Part shown: one piece after another, positions 3,014 through 57,566 of the stretch
Numbering within the stretch: position 1 is the first letter of the stretch
Layout: each line of letters starts with the position of its first letter
Source of the DNA: Escherichia phage teqskov
Length of the DNA stretch: 64,000 nt
Sequence record: NC_054934.1
Strand: one strand, 5' to 3'
Program-made: the position numbers and the translations under genes
The notes under the pieces: generated by a model
What the model was told of the DNA's origin: nothing
What the model saw: the letters and a program-made list of their open reading frames with translations, nothing else
Database searches by the model: none

Positions 3014-4786
3014 TTAATTAACTCCAGTCGCATCAAATACACCAGGAGCAGTCGTGCTCGTTACGGGTGTCATATTATGAACGACAGTATTTTTCTTAAT
3101 AACATTATTAGTATTATTGATCGAAGGAGATGCTTGTTGAACAGGAGCTTGCTGTGCTTTGTTCTTTTCTATTACCTGGACTTGTTTTGCTTCTGGCGAT
3201 TTAGCAGAAGTTTCAGGTTTGGCATTAGGCTGATTTTTCTTGAGCTCTTGATAAGTAGCATCAATTTTAGAAAATCTAGCAGCAAGTTCTTTTTTAACTG
3301 CCGGTGAATTATTTAAATCCGGGTCATCCATCCGTTTTTTAAGGTCTTCATAGGCAGCTTCAACTGATTTAACCGTTGAGTCTTTACTCATATCAGCTGA
3401 ATCAGCATATTTTTCAAAACGAATCATCGCGGCACGGGCTTCATTAGCCTTCATTAAAGCATTTTTTCTTTCTTCAGGTGAAAGTTGCTTTAATTTTTCT
3501 TCTTCTGCTGCGCGTTCTTCATCGGTTGTCAATGCTTCTTTATTATCAACGCCACGAATCCAGTTAGATGCACGAGTTTTCCAATTAGCAATTTTATCTA
3601 ATCCTTTTGCTATCGGACCAAGGTCTCCGTTCATTCGTTTATCTTGATAATTTGCAACTTTTTCCTGGTCTTCTTTATTGAGAGATGCTCCAGTAGAATT
3701 TTGGAAATTTTCTAGTGCTCTTCCTTCTACTTCATCAGCGGTATCCTTCATGCCAGGAATGACTCGAAGAATTGCAGCAGATAATTTAGCCATTCCAAGC
3801 TGAATAAGTTCTCCTAAATTATAAAGAACCTTTCCAAGCCCTTCTACAATAGCTACCGTCAAACCGCCCCAATCTCCCTCTTCCCAGAATTTTTTAATTT
3901 CATCAATAGAACTAAAGATGCTCTGTAATAAAGGACCCCATGTTCCGGTTTCGCTAGAGAATTTAGTAAAGTCTGTACTAAACAAATCCCAAGCCTGCGA
4001 AAATTTATCTGACCAATATTTGAAATGAACCATCAGCAGATCTATTCCAACAACAACAGCCAATATCATTGCAGTCATTTTAGCAGCTTCAATAGCAGCA
4101 CTAACGGTATACTTAAATAGCATGCTTGATATTTTATCAGTAATTGAAATGGATTTCTTAAATCCAAAATCAACAGTCTTTGTTAATTTATCTAAAGCTT
4201 GAGATAATTTTAAGTTAAATGCGTCTTTTTTCTGTTTTTCTTCTGGCGATTCTTGTTTAGGTTCAACTGGCTGAGGGGTAGGGAAAAAATCAGCATCAGG
4301 ATCATTATTAACTGCTTCAGGAGCCGGTAATAAAGGACCCACAGATTCAGCTGTATCGTCCTCAACAACTTTAACAGGAATAGCGCTTTCAACCGTAGCT
4401 AAACTAGTTCCTGTTTGTTGAATTCCAGCTGTCTGAATTTTTTGTTCTAATAAACTCGTTAATTTATCTAATTTGCTTCCGAGTGATTCGCCTATTTCTT
4501 TATTGATATTATTGCCAATTTCAACAGTCTCGGCAATTAACTCAGAACCAGCAGTAGTATCACTCACTGCGCTTTCTACATTGTCAATTGCTCCAATTAT
4601 TTCATTCGATTTTTCTTCGACAGTTTGAGCAATTAATTCAGAAGCAGCTTGAGCATCATCCAATTTCGTAGATATATCGTTAAGTCCAGATAAAGTGTTA
4701 GAAGCGGATTTAGCCGCTTCCTGTGTTGGTTTATTATCTGAAATAACTTTTCTACGCATCGTTTGCATTTCTTGTGGCTTTTTCAT
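3014..4786 (-). CDS. 29: tail tape-measure / baseplate hub protein gp29
   Basis: 590 aa as in T4 gp29; extended low-complexity/coiled regions; synteny. Confidence 0.8.
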   Translation of the reverse strand: MKKPQEMQTMRRKVISDNKPTQEAAKSASNTLSGLNDISTKLDDAQAASELIAQTVEEKSNEIIGAIDNVESAVSDTTAGSELIAETVEIGNNINKEIGESLGSKLDKLTSLLEQKIQTAGIQQTGTSLATVESAIPVKVVEDDTAESVGPLLPAPEAVNNDPDADFFPTPQPVEPKQESPEEKQKKDAFNLKLSQALDKLTKTVDFGFKKSISITDKISSMLFKYTVSAAIEAAKMTAMILAVVVGIDLLMVHFKYWSDKFSQAWDLFSTDFTKFSSETGTWGPLLQSIFSSIDEIKKFWEEGDWGGLTVAIVEGLGKVLYNLGELIQLGMAKLSAAILRVIPGMKDTADEVEGRALENFQNSTGASLNKEDQEKVANYQDKRMNGDLGPIAKGLDKIANWKTRASNWIRGVDNKEALTTDEERAAEEEKLKQLSPEERKNALMKANEARAAMIRFEKYADSADMSKDSTVKSVEAAYEDLKKRMDDPDLNNSPAVKKELAARFSKIDATYQELKKNQPNAKPETSAKSPEAKQVQVIEKNKAQQAPVQQASPSINNTNNVIKKNTVVHNMTPVTSTTAPGVFDATGVN

Positions 4787-5316
4787 TCAAATAATCCAAT
4801 AATATTGCCAATTCCGGTTATTGGACCATTAGGGCCAGGAATTGCTAAAGTTGTAAAAATATCATTTGCCCATTTTAAAACGAATGCTGGCATCTCAAGA
4901 AAATTAATTTCTTTAACTTCATCATTGACCTTAAGCAAGCATTTGGATAACATATCGCTCACCGTTAAAAATTGTTCAAATTTTCCAGGAGGTCTAAAAT
5001 AAAATGTATTTCCTTGGTATTGAAATTCTAATCTTTGGCATACATAAACATCATTAATGTCATAAGTATAACCATCTATTTCTTTACGAGATTTAATCTT
5101 TCCATTAAATTCCAATAAATGAATGGAAACGAAATCAACTTCTGCTGGTGATAAATTCGGGCAAATAGAATCAATAAGAAGTTTTAAATTTTCATCAGGA
5201 CCTTTAACATCTTTTAAAATGTTATAATGTTTAAGACCCATTTTAGGAATAGAAACTTCTTTATTGCTTATTGGAAGAACTACTTTCTTCAGTGGTAGTA
5301 TCAGATTTAAATTCAT
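4783..5316 (-). CDS. 28: baseplate hub protein gp28
   Basis: 177 aa as T4 gp28; overlaps start of gene 27. Confidence 0.75.
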
Positions 5317-6436
5317 TTTTAACCTTAACTGGGTCTATTGTTTCCAGTTTCGTTGCATTAGTGAACATATATAGATGAGTTACTGAATTATTATTAGATA
5401 ATTCGTGGATAACTTCATCAACGTAAAATTCTGTTTTAAATTGGTTTTTACTATCATTAAAAATAATTTTAACGCCAGGAGTCAAGTTAAAATTACCGAC
5501 AGTAGAACATTTAGCATAGCCATCGTATTGTGCCATAGTTTGAAGACGAATAGCTTCTTCATATCCATTCCTATAAGTCATTTCAGAATAAGCACCTGAC
5601 CTTGACACTACAATAGAGTTTTCTCCCTTTCCTGTAGTAATCATTGGCAATGAAGAATCTAAAAATGAATGAGCATAGATAGTAGCGTTTTTCATTGGGT
5701 CGCGTTTATGAGGATTCGATTTAGTCAACCAAACGAAATCATATGCTAATGGATATTTTAATTCTTGGATGAATTGACCTATTAAAGATGGCTCACCGAC
5801 AATCATTGGATACGGTTCTTGATTTATCATCATATCATAGTCCATCATGTTAACTCCCATGATGTCTTGCCACACAAATACAAATTTGTCACTTCCTACA
5901 GCTAGAGCAACTTCTCTTACATAGGATAAATAATTTTCAAATGTACTAGTCCATGGAATATCAGGAACATAAGCATTTATAGCATTTATTGCTGGAGTTA
6001 ATAATGTGCGATCTTGATAAATGACACCAAGCATTTCTTTTATAGATTCACCTGCATCAGGGAAAAATGGTCTACCAAATTTAAGATTTTCTATAGAATG
6101 AATAGTTCCCAATTCAATAGCAATGATGTTATCACCTTTTGAATCTACGGACACAGAAAAATGCTTACATCCATAAATTCGTGTTTTAACATTATTAATA
6201 TCATTTGCATTAGCTACAGAAATCTGAATTATTTCATTTCCATCCATTTTTGTATGGATGTTTTTAGAATCATAAAACTGCAGCATTCCTTCATTTCGTC
6301 CATAAAGAGAATCCCGCATAGTTAATGTGGTAATAGTAGCAGCTAATTCAACAAATCTATTATTACTCCAAGCGTCGTAGCTATCAAATAATTTAACGCT
6401 GAGATTTGGATATCCTGGGCGTTGCAACATACTCAT
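5261..6436 (-). CDS. 27: baseplate hub protein gp27
   Basis: 391 aa as T4 gp27; synteny. Confidence 0.85.
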
Positions 6437-19185: not shown

Positions 19186-19610
19186 TAGCTTAATCCTAAT
19201 GCTTTACGGCGTTTAAGAGCTTTTTTACGCTTACGCTGAGCACGAGATTGACCTGCTGGATTGGCAATCTTCGTTTTGGTAGCTTTACGAGCAATTTGTC
19301 TACGTTTTGCTTTAGACAGCCCAGTGGTTTGAAATGCATTACGTTCACGCGTTTTGCGGTCTTTAGTGCGAGTAATTTCACCACGGGCAGAAACATGTTT
19401 AACGATGAATTCATTTAACGGCATATTTTCATTAATAGAAGCTAATGCAACCGCTAAATCAGTTTCATCATCAAGCATATTCTCGACAATTGTATTTATA
19501 TCGTCTTTATTTAAAGCAGAAGACAATTCGTCAAAGCGACCCTGTGCTTCAGGAATAAGTGCTTCGACATTCTCGAGAACTAATTCATGAGTTTCAGGGA
19601 TCAGAAGCAT
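19185..19610 (-). CDS. 68: prohead core protein gp68
   Basis: 141 aa; basic C-terminus; synteny. Confidence 0.7.
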
Positions 19611-19848
19611 TATTCATCATCCTCGTCTTCGTCAGAGTCTTTGTCTTTTTTGTCGTCTTTATCATCACTATCTTCGTCTTCGTCATCATCCTCATCATCA
19701 GGTTCTTCACCTTCGATTAAGAAATTGCGAGCGATAGCGATTTTTTCTTCTTTAATTAAATCAATCGTTCTTGCAGCCATGGCTTCAGCAAAGAATTTAC
19801 GAGCGGCTACGAGGTCGTTTGATTTAATAGCTTCAATTAAACCTTCCA

Positions 19849-48176: not shown

Positions 48177-48434
48177 ATGAAAACTTATAAAGAGTTTGCT
48201 ACAGAAACTATTATCACTGAATCTTCTCATGGTATGGAAGTAAAGCTTGGAATGGCTTTAGCTGAAGCTGAGCGTCTTTTTTCTCGTATTAAAGAACTTG
48301 CTGCTGCAGTCGATCCTTCATCTTTTAAAGGAGACCAAACTAAAGTTAAAGCACTTTTAGCATTATGCTCTGATGCAGGAGAAATCGCTAAGAACGGTTC
48401 TAAGATGAAGAAACGATTAGAAGATTTAAAATAA
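48177..48434 (+). CDS. internal-protein-like small protein with capsid targeting signal (CTS)
   Basis: N-terminus MKTYKEFATE matches the CTS consensus of T4 internal proteins; own early promoter. Confidence 0.6.
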   Translation: MKTYKEFATETIITESSHGMEVKLGMALAEAERLFSRIKELAAAVDPSSFKGDQTKVKALLALCSDAGEIAKNGSKMKKRLEDLK

Positions 48435-48512: not shown

Positions 48513-48746
48513 ATGAAAACGTATCAAGAATTTATTGCTGAAGCTGCTGATGTAAAAGTTGAGTTTATTTACATTGGCAAGAAAGATAAAATGGGCGAAA
48601 TGCCTCATGGAGTTCTTCGTGATGCATTAGATAATTTCGGTCAACTCGGTGGTGAAGAGTTTGGTGATTATTTTGTTATCTATGGACCAGAAAAAGTCAT
48701 CGAGAAATGGGCTGATAAATATAAATCAATTTTTCGTAAAAAATAA
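48513..48746 (+). CDS. internal-protein-like small protein with CTS (IPI-family candidate)
   Basis: ORF-track start 48495 is GTG; ATG at 48513 with GGAGAA upstream gives MKTYQEFIAEA... (77 aa); own early promoter. Confidence 0.6.
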   Translation: MKTYQEFIAEAADVKVEFIYIGKKDKMGEMPHGVLRDALDNFGQLGGEEFGDYFVIYGPEKVIEKWADKYKSIFRKK

Positions 48747-49403: not shown

Positions 49404-49697
49404 ATGATTCTTTATGCTAAAGTATCATCCATTGAAAATGGATATAAATATGATCAAGAAGCAGCTAAAGCCTTGATTGATGATTATGGCATTTTAACAT
49501 GTTTTGAAGTTGAAAAGGTTTACATTGACCGTTCATCTTCTCAGGTTAAATTAGTGAAGGAAGACCGTAAATTTAATACAGTAAATTTTGATTTCTTTAT
49601 TGAAACGGAAAAAGGTCCTCTTGAATATGATATTTTCAAGAATCCTTTGGGTCTTGAATGTATTGAATATACTTACATTAATATGGTGAGCAAATGA
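49404..49697 (+). CDS. hypothetical protein (97 aa)
   Basis: ORF 2 nt after previous stop. Confidence 0.5.
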   Translation: MILYAKVSSIENGYKYDQEAAKALIDDYGILTCFEVEKVYIDRSSSQVKLVKEDRKFNTVNFDFFIETEKGPLEYDIFKNPLGLECIEYTYINMVSK

Positions 49698-50209
49698 ATA
49701 TTTGTTTAGGTACTACAATTCCACAGGGTTACGTAATTGATGTCACTACCTGGGAAAATGATGGTGACAACTATAAAACTAAAACACTGTTTGGCGTAGA
49801 AGAGCATGAAATCTTACAATTCCAATATCTTTTAAAGAAGTTTAAAAGCAGACATTCTAGTACTAAAGCTGAACGTTATTGTGGTAATGGCTTGTTCAGC
49901 GAGCAATCGCTTTTTATTTATGAATACTTGGTTGAAGGACTGTTCTCAGAACAACTTTATCCAGAATTCATTAAAAAGGTCTTTGATATAGAAGTTGACC
50001 TTGGTAATAAATCCGAAGAAGACGAAGAACGCATATTTGACTTATTCTTTGTGAATGGTAATAAAGTGCTTGAAGGACTTATTAATATTTTAGGTAATGC
50101 TTCTGAGTATTATGATTATGATTTTTTGCGTGTAGTTGAGAGTGTTAAATACTCTTATATAGAAGAAGAAATTGTTTTGCCGACCGTTAAAATGTTTAAT
50201 TTGCTTTAA
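49694..50209 (+). CDS. hypothetical protein (171 aa)
   Basis: ATGA overlap with previous ORF. Confidence 0.5.
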   Translation: MNICLGTTIPQGYVIDVTTWENDGDNYKTKTLFGVEEHEILQFQYLLKKFKSRHSSTKAERYCGNGLFSEQSLFIYEYLVEGLFSEQLYPEFIKKVFDIEVDLGNKSEEDEERIFDLFFVNGNKVLEGLINILGNASEYYDYDFLRVVESVKYSYIEEEIVLPTVKMFNLL

Positions 50210-50295
50210 GAATTATTTGTTATTATTAACTCATACCGCACTGATTAATACCCTCTATCATCAAGGGTTCTTGTTTGAGAGCCTTTGTTAATAAT

Positions 50296-50368
50296 TGGGA
50301 ATTAGCCAAGTTGGTAAGGCATAGCACTTTGACTGCTAGATGCAAAGGTTCGAGTCCTTTATTCCCAG
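50296..50368 (+). tRNA. tRNA-Gln (anticodon TTG)
   Basis: cloverleaf folded by hand: acceptor TGGGAAT/ATTCCCA, anticodon stem TAGCA/TGCTA, loop CTTTGAC, T-loop TTCGAGT. Confidence 0.85.
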
Positions 50369-50369
50369 C

Positions 50370-50456
50370 GCGAGAATGGTCAAATTGGTAAAGGCACAGC
50401 ACTTAAAATGCTGCGGAATGATTTCCTTGTGGGTTCGAGTCCCACTTCTCGCACCA
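50370..50456 (+). tRNA. tRNA-Leu (anticodon TAA), long variable arm, encoded CCA
   Basis: acceptor GCGAGAA/TTCTCGC; anticodon stem CAGCA/TGCTG, loop CTTAAAA. Confidence 0.85.
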
Positions 50457-50461
50457 AATTT

Positions 50462-50536
<75 letters not shown>

Positions 50537-50545
50537 TTTAATTTA

Positions 50546-50619
50546 CTCCGTGTAGCTCAGTTTGGTAGAGCGTCTGCTTTGGGAGCAGAATGTCGTAGGT
50601 TCAAATCCTGCCGCGGAGA
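50546..50619 (+). tRNA. tRNA-Pro (anticodon TGG)
   Basis: acceptor CTCCGTG/CGCGGAG (one G-T pair); anticodon stem TCTGC/GCAGA, loop TTTGGGA; T-loop TTCAAAT. Confidence 0.85.
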
Positions 50620-50621
50620 CT

Positions 50622-50711
50622 GGAGGCGTGGCAGAGTGGTTTAATGCACCGGTCTTGAAAACCGGCAGTCGCTCCGGCGACTCATAGGTTCAAATCCTAT
50701 CGCCTCCGCCA
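50622..50711 (+). tRNA. tRNA-Ser (anticodon TGA), long variable arm, encoded CCA
   Basis: acceptor GGAGGCG/CGCCTCC; anticodon stem CCGGT/ACCGG, loop CTTGAAA. Confidence 0.85.
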
Positions 50712-50716
50712 GTTTT

Positions 50717-50792
50717 GCTGATTTAGCTCAGTAGGTAGAGCAGTTGACTGTTAATCAATTGGTCCATGGTTCGAATCCATGCATGTCCGCCA
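50717..50792 (+). tRNA. aberrant tRNA-like gene (Asn-type anticodon GTT) with non-pairing acceptor stem; probable chimeric or pseudo-tRNA
   Basis: D-arm, anticodon arm (GTTGA-CTGTTAA-TCAAT) and T-arm (CATGG-TTCGAAT-CCATG) fold, but 5' acceptor GCTGATT cannot pair with 3' CATGTCC (3 of 7 pairs); ends in GCCA. Confidence 0.5.
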
Positions 50793-50918
50793 AACTTGTG
50801 ACAGTTGTCACATTAATATCTACTTGACGCGATTATAGGGGTTGAACTGATCACACTTCTCTTAATTTCGTGTGAAGACATCTTGATTGTTGGAGTAGGT
50901 ATTGCTGTGAACTAATTA

Positions 50919-50995
50919 CGGGGTGTAACTCAATTGTATAGAGTAGCGGTCCTCTAAACCGCAGGTTAAAGGTTAGAATCCTTTCACCCTGACCA
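50919..50995 (+). tRNA. tRNA-Arg (anticodon TCT), encoded CCA
   Basis: acceptor CGGGGTG/CACCCTG (one G-T pair); anticodon stem GCGGT/ACCGC, loop CCTCTAA; T-loop TTAGAAT. Confidence 0.85.
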
Positions 50996-51016
50996 AATTA
51001 TTGAGAGAATAATATT

Positions 51017-51571
51017 ATGAGAAGTGATGTAGACTGGGACCAAATTAATTTGGCTATAAAAGCTGGATTAATATACCATGGTAATTTTGAAATAACACAA
51101 GAACTAATTGAAAATGTTGCTTTTCTTAAAATAACAGATAAGAAAAAATTCTTTTCTATGACTGAAGCCAAACGCTTGTCAAAATGGAAAGTATTTTGTA
51201 GGACTGCCGCCCTAAATCTTTTGAAATTTAAAGATGAATTTGATATAGAAAAAAGCTATCGACAGGCTTTCGTATACATAATGGTAGATACTACAAATCC
51301 TAATTATTATAAAATAGGAAGAAGTATAGAACCTGATGTTAGAGTTATAACAGCAAATACATTTTCACCGTTTAAAAGTTTTAAAATAGTATCATTTAGA
51401 TATTCCCAGGATGCAGTAGAACTTGAAAAATATATGCACAGCATTTATAATCAGGACCATATAAATGGTGAATGGTTTTTCTTTCATGACATAAGTTCCA
51501 TAGTTAAAAAATTAGATACTAAATCTACACAATTTGAAATACCAAATGAGAAACCGGGTCGCTACCGGTAA
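51017..51571 (+). CDS. T5orf172 / GIY-YIG-like domain protein (184 aa)
   Basis: C-terminal half has VYIMVD...YYKIGRS...R......ELEKYMHSIY...GEWF, matching the T5orf172 (GIY-YIG superfamily) pattern; lies directly after tRNA-Arg. Confidence 0.55.
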   Translation: MRSDVDWDQINLAIKAGLIYHGNFEITQELIENVAFLKITDKKKFFSMTEAKRLSKWKVFCRTAALNLLKFKDEFDIEKSYRQAFVYIMVDTTNPNYYKIGRSIEPDVRVITANTFSPFKSFKIVSFRYSQDAVELEKYMHSIYNQDHINGEWFFFHDISSIVKKLDTKSTQFEIPNEKPGRYR

Positions 51572-51589
51572 GTCGTCGGACTGATGTTC

Positions 51590-51859
51590 CCTGAGTAAGG
51601 AATTGCGTTAATAATCTTTGCGTTTATTGATGCCCTCTTACATCACAGCAGAAACGGCGCACCGAATTATCGATTCGAGGAAATATCTTTGCCGTAAGCC
51701 GAGTAGCGTTTTTGACGGAACGTTCGGATATGGTCGAGATATGGCCTTTTAAAAATATTGAGTAGCGTCAACTACTTAATAACCGGGTTCAAGTCCCGGC
51801 GTTTCGTACAAACACTTGCCTTAGCAGGTGGAACCCCGACAAGGTTGCCGCAAGGCTTA
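51590..51859 (+). ncRNA. structured non-coding region, possible small stable RNA(s) as at the distal end of the T4 tRNA cluster
   Basis: no ORF; tRNA-like T-arm hairpin CCGGG-TTCAAGT-CCCGG and several inverted repeats; ends at a rho-independent terminator. Confidence 0.25.
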
Positions 51860-51886
51860 GCCCCGACCGAAAGGTTGGGGCTTTTT
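51860..51886 (+). terminator. rho-independent terminator (CCCCGACC-GAAA-GGTTGGGG then CTTTTT)
   Basis: 8-bp GC-rich stem, GAAA loop, T-run. Confidence 0.7.
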
Positions 51887-51932
51887 AGTATAAATAAGTA
51901 TATTAAAACCACGAATTAAAACAGGAAATAAG

Positions 51933-52406
51933 ATGAAATCATATGCTCAATTTTTAAATGAAGCGGTGTTAAATGAAGCATCTAGCACTGAAATTCAAGC
52001 TGTTGCAAAAGCTGCCATTGCCGCGGGTAAATATTCCTATAAAGATGCTTCCGATGAATCACGATTCCAATTTGCTCGTGATATGAAAGCCGAAGGATTT
52101 ACAGGGAATGCAGTTAGTATGGCTTGGAAAAGTTTAGTTGCTACTGGAGCTGCTTTTGCAAAGGCTTCAGGTAAACCTGCTCCTAAGGCTGATCCTAAAG
52201 CAGCACAAGAAAAAAATATTGCTAAAGGAATTATCTCTAGGTATGAAGCAATTCTTAAAGAACTTTTGATAATCAAAACTGAAGGCCAAAAGCTAGCTCG
52301 TGCTTATAGTTTCAAAGATAACCCACATGTTCACTCTCTTGAATATGTTGAAGACATCCAAAAAATTATTAAAGACCGCATTTGGTCTGCTAAACAAATC
52401 AAATAA
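51933..52406 (+). CDS. CTS-bearing putative internal (head-packaged) protein, 157 aa, Lys/Ala-rich
   Basis: N-terminus MKSYAQFLNEAVLNEA resembles the CTS with L-x-E cleavage motifs; followed by a terminator. Confidence 0.5.
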   Translation: MKSYAQFLNEAVLNEASSTEIQAVAKAAIAAGKYSYKDASDESRFQFARDMKAEGFTGNAVSMAWKSLVATGAAFAKASGKPAPKADPKAAQEKNIAKGIISRYEAILKELLIIKTEGQKLARAYSFKDNPHVHSLEYVEDIQKIIKDRIWSAKQIK

Positions 52407-52414
52407 CATTCTTA

Positions 52415-52442
52415 GCCCCAGCCGAAAGGTTGGGGCTTTTTG
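52415..52442 (+). terminator. rho-independent terminator (CCCCAGCC-GAAA-GGTTGGGG then CTTTTT), near-duplicate of the one at 51860
   Basis: stem-loop plus T-run. Confidence 0.7.
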
Positions 52443-52575
52443 GTATCTAGGCCTTTCCGGGCCTCTCTGGGCATCATTTAGTTTATACCCTTTATAATAT
52501 ATTATCCTACCTTTTAATTGTCCCTCCTGACCCTAGAATTCCCTAAAACTTTTTAAAAAATTTTTTCACAAAACT

Positions 52576-52605
52576 GTTTACATCCCTGTTCTTCCATGGT
52601 ACTAT
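52576..52605 (+). promoter_or_regulatory. T4-type early promoter (GTTTAC-N18-TACTAT)
   Basis: -35 GTTTAC at 52576, TG-n-TACTAT -10 at 52600; 30 nt upstream of ORF 52637. Confidence 0.6.
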
Positions 52606-52636
52606 ACAACTATCAACTACTGATACAGAAAACAAT

Positions 52637-52912
52637 TTGGAGAATGAAATGGATAATTACGGCGAACTGTTCAACTTCTTTATGAAATGTGTTTCAGAAG
52701 ATTTCGGTCGTACAGTGAATGATATTAAAGTTATCGGTCCTGATCATCCGATGTTTGAAACTTACGCAGTAATGGGTAATGAAGACGGTCAGTGGTATAC
52801 TGTAAAGGTTGTGATTAACATGTTCACGGCAGAAGGTTATGTTAAACTGTCTTCTAAAGTTTACCATGATAACGACGAAATCGCAGAAGAATATTTCAAT
52901 AATATGAAATAA
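52637..52912 (+). CDS. hypothetical protein (91 aa, e.8-position)
   Basis: ORF downstream of early promoter. Confidence 0.5.
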   Translation: MENEMDNYGELFNFFMKCVSEDFGRTVNDIKVIGPDHPMFETYAVMGNEDGQWYTVKVVINMFTAEGYVKLSSKVYHDNDEIAEEYFNNMK

Positions 52913-57092: not shown

Positions 57093-57566
57093 ATGAAAAC
57101 ATATCAAGAATTTATCACTGAAGCAGCTATTAATTCTCAAATTATTGCTGAATCTTTTACCGATCTTTTGAAATTTAAAAAAGGTCAAAAAATCACTGCT
57201 GTATTGGATGATGGTACAGAAGTTGAGATGGATGTACAGGGATATAATTATGCAGTAGATGGAAAACTGTATAATAAATCTCATGCTAAATTTGATTCAT
57301 TTGACGACTTTGTTAATACAGTTGAAGATGAAAAAACTCGTAGATCCATTGCAACTGGTGATGCTAAGGTTCTTATGGCACATGGTCATGAACGCATTCG
57401 CGCTAAACAGAATAAAATGGGTGAAGATAATTTTGCATTAGTTGGTTATCAATCTGGTAAACAAACTTATGGCTATCAACGTACTGCTACCATGTATAAT
57501 AAAAATGGTAAAATCGCTTTCGTGAATAGTAAAGGTTCTATTCAGTACGTTAAATCGTTCAAATAA
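57093..57566 (+). CDS. CTS-bearing internal protein (ipII/ipIII locus), 157 aa
   Basis: N-terminus MKTYQEFITEAAINSQIIAE; position after denV corresponds to T4 ipII/ipIII. Confidence 0.6.
   Translation: MKTYQEFITEAAINSQIIAESFTDLLKFKKGQKITAVLDDGTEVEMDVQGYNYAVDGKLYNKSHAKFDSFDDFVNTVEDEKTRRSIATGDAKVLMAHGHERIRAKQNKMGEDNFALVGYQSGKQTYGYQRTATMYNKNGKIAFVNSKGSIQYVKSFK

Follow-up and report, generated by a model that had tools for sequence, protein, structure and literature searches.

A candidate family of internal head proteins encoded by a terminator-flanked cassette of T4-type phages

Organization of the locus and its cassette

The stretch of DNA analysed here (64,000 nucleotides, referred to below as the window) is from a Tequatrovirus, and the region of interest is 99.6% identical to phage BCH953P2. 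An ATG-initiated open reading frame (ORF) for a protein of 157 residues was located at 51933–52406 on the + strand of the window sequence, in the following setting.

51856–51891, + strand: upstream copy of a 36-nt direct repeat (hairpin 51859–51882, T-run to 51887), the intrinsic terminator of the tRNA/rnaD/rnaC unit
51889–51896, + strand: TATAAATA, a T4-type late promoter motif, 37 nt upstream of the ATG and after the T-run of the upstream terminator
51923–51926, + strand: Shine–Dalgarno sequence AGGA, 6 nt upstream of the ATG, as seen in the sequence itself
51933–52406, + strand: the ORF including its stop codon (157 residues; RB32ORF132c/PHROG 2280 family)
52411–52446, + strand: downstream copy of the 36-nt direct repeat (hairpin 52414–52437, T-run to 52442), the gene's own terminator

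An earlier note on this DNA had described the product as Lys/Ala-rich, in agreement with the composition obtained here (17.8% Ala, 12.7% Lys); the calculated pI is 9.5 and the net charge is +7. Because dN/dS against orthologs is 0.04–0.10, a spurious ORF was rejected and we conclude that the gene is real and constrained. The protein is 100% identical to its counterpart in Shigella phage Sf21. On the + strand, the gene is preceded in order by 57B, an Ip5-like gene (48177, 85 residues), an Ip6-like gene (48513, 77 residues), the trna.x ORFs, six tRNAs, an ORF with a MUG113/T5orf172 domain, rnaD (51546–51663) and rnaC (51670–51808), and is followed by an early promoter, e.8 and further genes up to nudE, e, denV and an Ip4-like gene (57093). 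An Rfam search of 50000–52700 returned tRNAs only, with rnaC and rnaD matching no Rfam family.

The tRNA set of the phage consists of Gln, Leu, Gly, Pro, Ser and Arg, without intact Thr and Ile/Met tRNAs. A truncated tRNA-like remnant at 50717–50781 (+ strand) matches Rfam tRNA positions 8–63 with 51 bits and is 77% identical to T4 tRNA-Thr over 62 nt; ARAGORN makes no call there. Between trna.2 and tRNA-Gln lies a 171-residue ORF (49694–50209, + strand) that T4 does not have and for which no Pfam match was found; its position and length correspond to a PhAPEC2 gene annotated as RB69ORF151c-like. The MUG113/T5orf172 ORF (51017–51571, + strand, 184 residues) is inserted between tRNA-Arg and rnaD, overlaps the start of rnaD (51546) with its final 26 nt and is probably a homing-endonuclease-like element; segB, which occupies another position in T4, gave no blastn match in the window. 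Two further + strand ORFs, 51618–51752 (44 residues) and 51758–51919 (53 residues), are named as hypothetical proteins in some relatives (e.g. SA20RB_135/134), but are probably spurious gene calls since they are positioned on rnaD/rnaC and the terminator. Within the 157-residue ORF itself, a 19-nt inverted repeat (51997–52015/52149–52167, 84% complementary) probably reflects Ala/Lys codon runs (GCTGCTTTTGCAAAGGC) and suggests no function.

The two flanking terminators, which had been called near-identical, are copies of a single repeat, with 33 of 36 nucleotides identical and a spacing of exactly 555 bp. Both hairpins consist of a 10-bp stem, a GAAA tetraloop and a U5 tail, with folding energies of −20.3 kcal/mol upstream and −20.6 kcal/mol downstream (z = −3.9 and −4.5, respectively). 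None of 200 shuffles folded as well as either, and the pair are the strongest two terminator-like sites in the 6.5-kb region scanned. The annotation of RB32ORF132c in phage RB51 notes a flanking '34 bp imperfect direct repeat' and leaves the gene hypothetical.

TATAAATA is the sole promoter-like motif in the 50-nt spacer, where an early-promoter-like site was sought and none was found, and the SA20RB annotation marks the motif as a late promoter. In the AT-rich window the motif occurs nine times on the + strand and 14 times on the − strand, compared with about eight expected, so that on its own it is about as frequent as chance and takes its weight only from its position and its conservation across genera. 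Tequatrovirus, Tegunavirus and Jiaodavirus share the order terminator–TATAAATA–gene: the motif comes immediately after the terminator T-run in RB51 and in Klebsiella phage KP1 (whose junction, CTTTTTAGTATAAATA, is identical to that of the window), and closely follows a terminator in fHe-Yen9-01, at the head of a two-gene gp154–gp153 unit. PhAPEC2 (Mosigvirus) has the one-mismatch variant AATAAATA. In contrast, the Ip5-like and Ip6-like genes have TTTACA-17-TACTAT early-promoter-like sites. With a late promoter motif and a terminator on each side, the gene forms its own unit, as had been proposed, and the late expression predicted from this arrangement fits a prohead component. Late transcription would begin at TATAAATA, just past the terminator of the tRNA operon, and end at the gene's own terminator, yielding a monocistronic mRNA of about 0.5 kb.

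In T4, the rnaC–e.8 interval is only 285 bp and contains one terminator copy between the upstream and downstream flanks and no gene. The gene is likewise absent from T2, T6 and PST, each of which has a single terminator copy at this site as in T4, and from Klebsiella phage ValerieMcCarty03. The empty site in T4 with its one terminator copy leads us to regard the unit as a 555-bp cassette composed of the late promoter, the ORF and the second terminator copy. The cassette is dispensable and could be gained or lost through recombination between the two terminator repeats. In ValerieMcCarty03 (about 19410–19770 of the DNA examined), the cassette is cleanly missing by comparison with KP1, with the upstream terminator, the remnant 'TAGTATA/CGATAAT' and the downstream terminator being kept; these two terminators, however, are not copies of each other. 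In Jiaodavirus too, then, the gene comes and goes as one unit, and the presence/absence polymorphism recurs.

Leader, predicted processing and domain architecture

The N-terminus of the protein reads MKSYAQFLNEAVLNEASS, with L-N-E at residues 8–10 and 13–15. The precursor is predicted to be divided as follows.

51933–51977, + strand: predicted propeptide (residues 1–15), the CTS-like leader MKSYAQFLNE followed by a duplicated cleavage box AVLNE
51978–52160, + strand: domain 1 (residues 16–76; 18–75 in the model), a predicted three-helix domain
52161–52217, + strand: Lys/Ala/Pro-rich linker (residues 77–95; about 76–87 in the model), net charge +3, low pLDDT
52218–52403, + strand: domain 2 (residues 96–157; 88–154 in the model), a predicted long helical hairpin

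The capsid targeting signal (CTS) of T4 is MKTYQEFIAE in both IPII and IPIII. Amber-suppressor work on IPIII (Mullaney & Black, 1996) assigned targeting mainly to residues 4 and 7 and processing to residues 8 and 10, and the prohead protease gp21 cuts after L/I-x-E (PMC9026906). All four positions reported to be critical are kept in MKSYAQFLNE (Y4, F7, L/I8 and E10), with Q at position 6 instead of the E of T4 and most homologs and S rather than T at position 3. The six frames of the window contain 575 ATG-initiated ORFs with 40 residues or more, and an MK[ST]Y start is found only in the Ip5-like, Ip6-like and Ip4-like proteins and the protein described here, and the pattern [YF]4-F7-[LIV]8-E10 only in the last three of these. 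In an alignment of 12 diverse sequences, with identities down to 26%, M1 and F7 are among the invariant columns, L8 is nearly invariant and only Y or F occurs at position 4, and each homolog has an [LIMF]-x-E box directly ahead of the conserved domain. The leader is as conserved as the core of domain 1. The second LNE box derives from a 15-nt tandem duplication (TTTTTAAATGAAGCG/GTGTTAAATGAAGCA) visible in the DNA; in alleles without it the first box runs straight into the domain, e.g. MKSYAEFLTE/QSSS in PhAPEC2.

The claim that the N-terminus is a CTS variant with two L-x-E motifs holds up against these comparisons, and the leader is a genuine variant of the T4 CTS. Recent gene conversion of the leader was rejected, as its DNA is identical to that of the other ip genes in the window at just 19–24 of 33 positions. 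One could still read the protein as an ordinary accessory protein that is not packaged and whose leader is a functionless relic of cassette recombination with ip genes. This would suit the database records, nearly all of which say hypothetical protein, and the non-specific nature of the proteomic evidence from phage fD1 (see below), but it is hard to reconcile with leader features retained in homologs of 26–37% identity from Mosigvirus, Tegunavirus, Jiaodavirus, Serratia and Cronobacter phages, in which F7, L8, the aromatic residue at position 4 and the x-E box are kept while the remainder diverges. Moreover, because the leader DNA has itself diverged, the similarity is held at the level of the protein. 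We regard this reading as the least probable of those considered.

If the leader is a CTS, gp21 is predicted to cleave after E10 (L8-N9-E10/A) and after E15 (L13-N14-E15/A). Because an [LIMF]-x-E box immediately precedes the domain in every homolog, the mature N-terminus is predicted to be A16, which would give a product of 142 residues with a molecular weight of 15.5 kDa and a pI of 9.6. The predicted neo-N-terminal peptides are ASSTEIQAVAK after E15 and AVLNEASSTEIQAVAK after E10, and those of an uncleaved N-terminus are SYAQFLNEAVLNEASSTEIQAVAK and SYTQFLNEAVLNEASSTEIQAVAK.

The AlphaFold2 model (mean pLDDT 76.8) consists of a floppy leader, a three-helix domain, a low-confidence linker and a long helical hairpin. 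Domain 1, which is nearly neutral in charge, shows the highest conservation in the family (AGKYSYKD..ESRFQFARDMKAEGF...AWKS). The sequence and length of the linker vary among homologs while its composition is kept, and two C-terminal variants (...DRIWSAKQIK and ...VGDVGRHYKKL) are present in the family. The homology search that the earlier note had proposed revealed a multi-genus family with a conserved leader, and profile searches of Pfam, NCBIfam and PDB sequences returned nothing significant. The only PHROGs match is PHROG 2280, of 'unknown function', and an informative fold match for the two helical domains was sought and none was found.

The body of the protein had also been called histone-like, a description that the analysis does not support. 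The segment on which it was based, AKASGKPAPKADPKAAQEKN, is a short low-confidence linker (19 residues) between the two helical domains, and a search for a histone, HU or other DNA-binding fold or family detected none. No recognisable HU/IHF, H-NS or histone fold or H1-like extended basic tail was found that would point to a histone-like or nucleoid-associated protein. In a weakened form of the same idea, the product would be a packaged, basic, DNA-associated protein with a capsid-internal or ejection role (charge neutralisation, condensation or protection) and not a specific defence inhibitor. In T4, the internal proteins lie within the packaged DNA (PMC3012670), and the pI of 9.5, the net charge of +7 and a Lys/Ala/Pro linker of conserved composition are in keeping with such a role, as is the occurrence in many genera with low dN/dS, which suggests an unvarying target such as DNA. 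However, the search for a DNA-binding fold or family was negative, the basic linker is just 19 residues long with a net charge of +3 beside a nearly neutral domain 1, the gene is dispensable and missing from about half of the related genomes, and all three tested T4 internal proteins are specific GmrSD inhibitors (PMC12373910). We consider this reading to be unlikely.

Family distribution and proposed function

A tblastn search located the protein in 510 phage records, which represent several genera of Tevenvirinae. About half of the T-even-type genomes carry the cassette, since 381 of the 770 records that match the query-flanking region cover at least 80%. Family members occur in Tequatrovirus, Mosigvirus (PhAPEC2 gp134), Tegunavirus (fHe-Yen9-01 gp153) and Jiaodavirus (KP1_122), with more distant members in Serratia, Cronobacter, Kosakonia, Enterobacter and Erwinia phages. 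In all four loci inspected, from four genera, the gene lies within the tRNA-to-e.8 interval of the ipI–tRNA–e hyperplastic region; in fHe-Yen9-01 three more ORFs whose N-termini are CTS-like lie next to the ortholog. When 1.84 billion representative proteins were searched with a profile, only 13 relatives were obtained, all apparent family members with the same leader and layout; those that were traced come from T4-like phages, and a functional link was not found among them. Nearly all of the database names sampled are 'hypothetical protein', with one UniRef entry (Klebsiella phage KPKp) reading 'Internal head protein'. A literature search for 'RB32ORF132c' retrieved no papers, no paper discussing the family was found, and the sequence is not among the supplements of PMC12373910. 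The family has probably stayed hypothetical because T2, T4 and T6 lack the gene.

The RB69ORF149c-like proteins (PhAPEC2 gp133 and fHe-Yen9-01 gp154) adjoin the ortholog in their genomes and, like it, match PHROG 2280 over their full length, sharing the leader and the layout of helical domain, PAK-rich linker and helical domain. They differ in that BLASTP within one genome matches just the 10-residue leader. These proteins are diverged tandem paralogs of the ortholog, and the window contains none. The paired leaders are MKSYAEFLTE and MKTYAEFLTE in PhAPEC2 (4925–6185 of the DNA examined) and MLEYSEFLKE and MLQYNEFLKE in fHe-Yen9-01 (4422–5537 of the DNA examined), so that in both phages the leaders match more closely within the genome than between orthologs, which suggests either co-evolution with the core or protease of each phage or intragenomic exchange. 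The PhAPEC2 paralogs form separate cassettes stacked at one site, each bounded by terminators.

Proteomic data from a relative bear on packaging. Yersinia phage fD1 (HE956711) encodes a 157-residue protein, g140, with few residue differences from that of the window. Table S3 of PMC8309999 classes Gp140 as PPAP, a label for proteins that LC-MS/MS identified in virions purified by ultracentrifugation when the authors' strict threshold was applied. The table is a permissive list, with 113 of 277 phage proteins (41%) together with 672 host proteins, and it gives no T4 counterpart for Gp140. The fD1 homologs of Ip4 (g129) and of IpI (g146, IpI-like) are PPAP as well, as are DenV, lysozyme and NudE. 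Because the list is permissive, the detection of Gp140 raises the odds of packaging only modestly and is supportive, not decisive. The proteome of CsCl-purified virions of Klebsiella phage ValerieMcCarty03/04 was set aside as uninformative on packaging, that phage being without the gene.

The detection in fD1 also touches on a third alternative, in which the protein is a late morphogenetic or prohead-core accessory that is degraded or expelled at maturation like gp22, gp67 and gp68 and is not delivered to the next host. The entirely helical model with its long hairpin recalls scaffold proteins, an extra internal L-K-E site is present at residues 108–110, and a late promoter and strong purifying selection are in keeping with such a protein. 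Against it, the ortholog was detected in mature virion preparations of fD1 (with the permissive list in mind), and the gene is dispensable in many relatives. To our knowledge, MKTYxEF-type leaders occur on internal proteins and not on the T4 core proteins. We judge a role confined to the prohead core to be rather improbable.

These three alternatives are ranked below the reading that we favour with moderate confidence, namely that the protein represents a new family of CTS-bearing internal head proteins, expressed late, targeted to the core, processed by gp21, packaged and injected. The protein is probably packaged in the head. According to this proposal, the 157-residue precursor would be brought to the prohead scaffolding core by its N-terminal CTS, with Y4 and F7 as key residues, and gp21 would remove the leader at L-N-E10/A and L-N-E15/A. 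The remaining basic protein of about 15.5 kDa (pI 9.6), in which a flexible Lys/Ala/Pro linker connects two helical domains, would stay in the DNA-filled head and be ejected into the host with the DNA. In the cell, its most likely task would be to counter a host defence that acts early, in the way that Ip1, Ip2 and Ip3 each do for a distinct GmrSD enzyme. CTS-dependent packaging, cleavage and injection, as well as the anti-defence role, are what we infer for the protein, the last by analogy with Ip1–Ip3 only. The breadth of the family and its low dN/dS are unusual for an arms-race protein and suit a role in structure or DNA handling no less well than one as a specific inhibitor; together with strong purifying selection, this breadth leaves room for a general role, either on DNA or against a conserved defence.

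Work published between 2022 and 2025 showed or implied that each of the three T4 internal proteins disarms a GmrSD type IV restriction enzyme of its own (PMC12373910; bioRxiv 10.1101/2022.04.14.488369), and injected proteins have therefore come to be regarded as a front line of counter-defence by phages. A family with the same predicted delivery signal is present in roughly half of the sequenced T-even-type genomes, as well as in related phages of Klebsiella, Yersinia, Serratia and Cronobacter. If the family is packaged, it is itself a candidate for a new anti-defence activity, with a bearing on the host range of therapeutic T4-like phages, and its leader would offer protein-delivery engineering a second natural variant of the CTS. 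The presence/absence polymorphism provides natural isogenic-like comparisons, e.g. KP1 versus ValerieMcCarty03 and RB51 versus T4.

The target of the family need not be GmrSD, since the family occurs in Mosigvirus and RB69, of this genus, carries arabinosyl-hmC and not glucosyl-hmC (PMC6024577). Possibly, although we hold it doubtful, this is the first Ip family conserved across many Tevenvirinae genera, including phages with different DNA hypermodifications, that acts on a conserved non-GmrSD target. That target would be a widespread early Enterobacterales defence or the injected DNA itself, and the gene would belong to a mobile late-promoter/terminator cassette, shifted by recombination between the copies of the terminator. 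If this is correct, the locus is the third for ip genes and its product belongs to a new type of injected effector, one that by chance is missing from the three laboratory T-even phages.

Relation to known internal proteins and gene cassettes

The T-even Ip series comprises T4 IPI, IPII and IPIII plus Ip4–Ip7 (Repoila et al., 1994; Mullaney & Black, 1996). The leader of the protein described here fits the pattern MK(T/S)(Y/F)x(E/Q)F(I/L)xE ending in an L/I-x-E/A gp21 site, and the protein is small and basic with a body unrelated to other Ips. Its pI of 9.5 and its content of Ala (18%) and Lys (13%) resemble those of T4 IPII and IPIII. The gene is also located in the ipI–tRNA–e–ipII/III variable region and is dispensable, some close relatives having it and others not. 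Comparison by hhalign with T4 IPII, T4 IPIII and the Ip4 of the window aligned at most the 10-residue leader, and paralogy with these proteins beyond the leader was rejected; the protein is distinct from the classical internal proteins, as the earlier note had it. With IPI, only the leader-like N-terminus is held in common. A common leader on unrelated bodies is the classic Ip pattern (PMC12373910).

Differences from the Ip series are also evident. The protein belongs to a separate family (PHROG 2280), which is unnamed as an Ip in the sampled genome annotations apart from the one UniRef entry, and its gene occupies a third locus, which lies between the rnaC terminator and e.8. The only promoter motif of the gene is of the late type, whereas the Ip5 and Ip6 genes of the window have early-promoter-like sites. 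The protein has two domains joined by a Pro/Ala/Lys linker, and its family extends across several genera as opposed to close T-even relatives only.

The window contains classical internal protein genes of its own. Two are at the ipI locus on the + strand, one Ip5-like (48177–48434, 85 residues, MKTYKEFATE...ITE) and one Ip6-like (48513–48746, 77 residues, MKTYQEFIAEA), each following a TTTACA-17-TACTAT early-promoter-like site that overlaps a stem-loop in a PeSL-like manner. The automatic start of the Ip6-like ORF is GTG 48495, and the CTS indicates ATG 48513 as the true start. An Ip4-type gene (57093–57566, + strand, 157 residues; DUF7412, PHROG 3155) directly follows denV, in place of the ipII/ipIII of T4; its product has I-x-E at residues 8–10 and 18–20 and equals the present protein in length by coincidence.

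Bair and Black are said to be a source, from 2007, on the internal proteins that inhibit GmrSD. Each of Ip1, Ip2 and Ip3 blocks a distinct GmrSD type IV restriction enzyme (PMC12373910; bioRxiv 10.1101/2022.04.14.488369). The present protein would resemble these inhibitors in its predicted route of delivery (packaged and co-injected) and does so in its genomic neighbourhood, which would make it a plausible addition to the anti-restriction proteins that are injected. It differs from them in having no sequence similarity or detectable structural similarity, and homology to the characterised inhibitors IPII and IPIII was sought and none was found.

The arrangement of the unit invites comparison with PeSL cassettes. 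Arbiol, in 2010, is said to share the credit for these with Comeau in 2014. PeSL promoter/stem-loop cassettes shuffle genes in the hyperplastic regions of T4-like phages (Comeau, 2014; PMC4122927). The repeats of the present unit are terminator hairpins with a late promoter, which differs from the composite of early promoter and stem-loop that defines PeSLs. No sigma-70-like site was found in either 36-nt repeat copy when searched for by the PeSL criterion of an early promoter overlapping a stem-loop, the nearest early-type promoter being at 52577–52605, 135 nt past the downstream copy. The likeness lies in the layout: a single gene is bracketed by near-identical stem-loop repeats, the empty site of relatives holds one copy, and cassettes are stacked at the same site in PhAPEC2.
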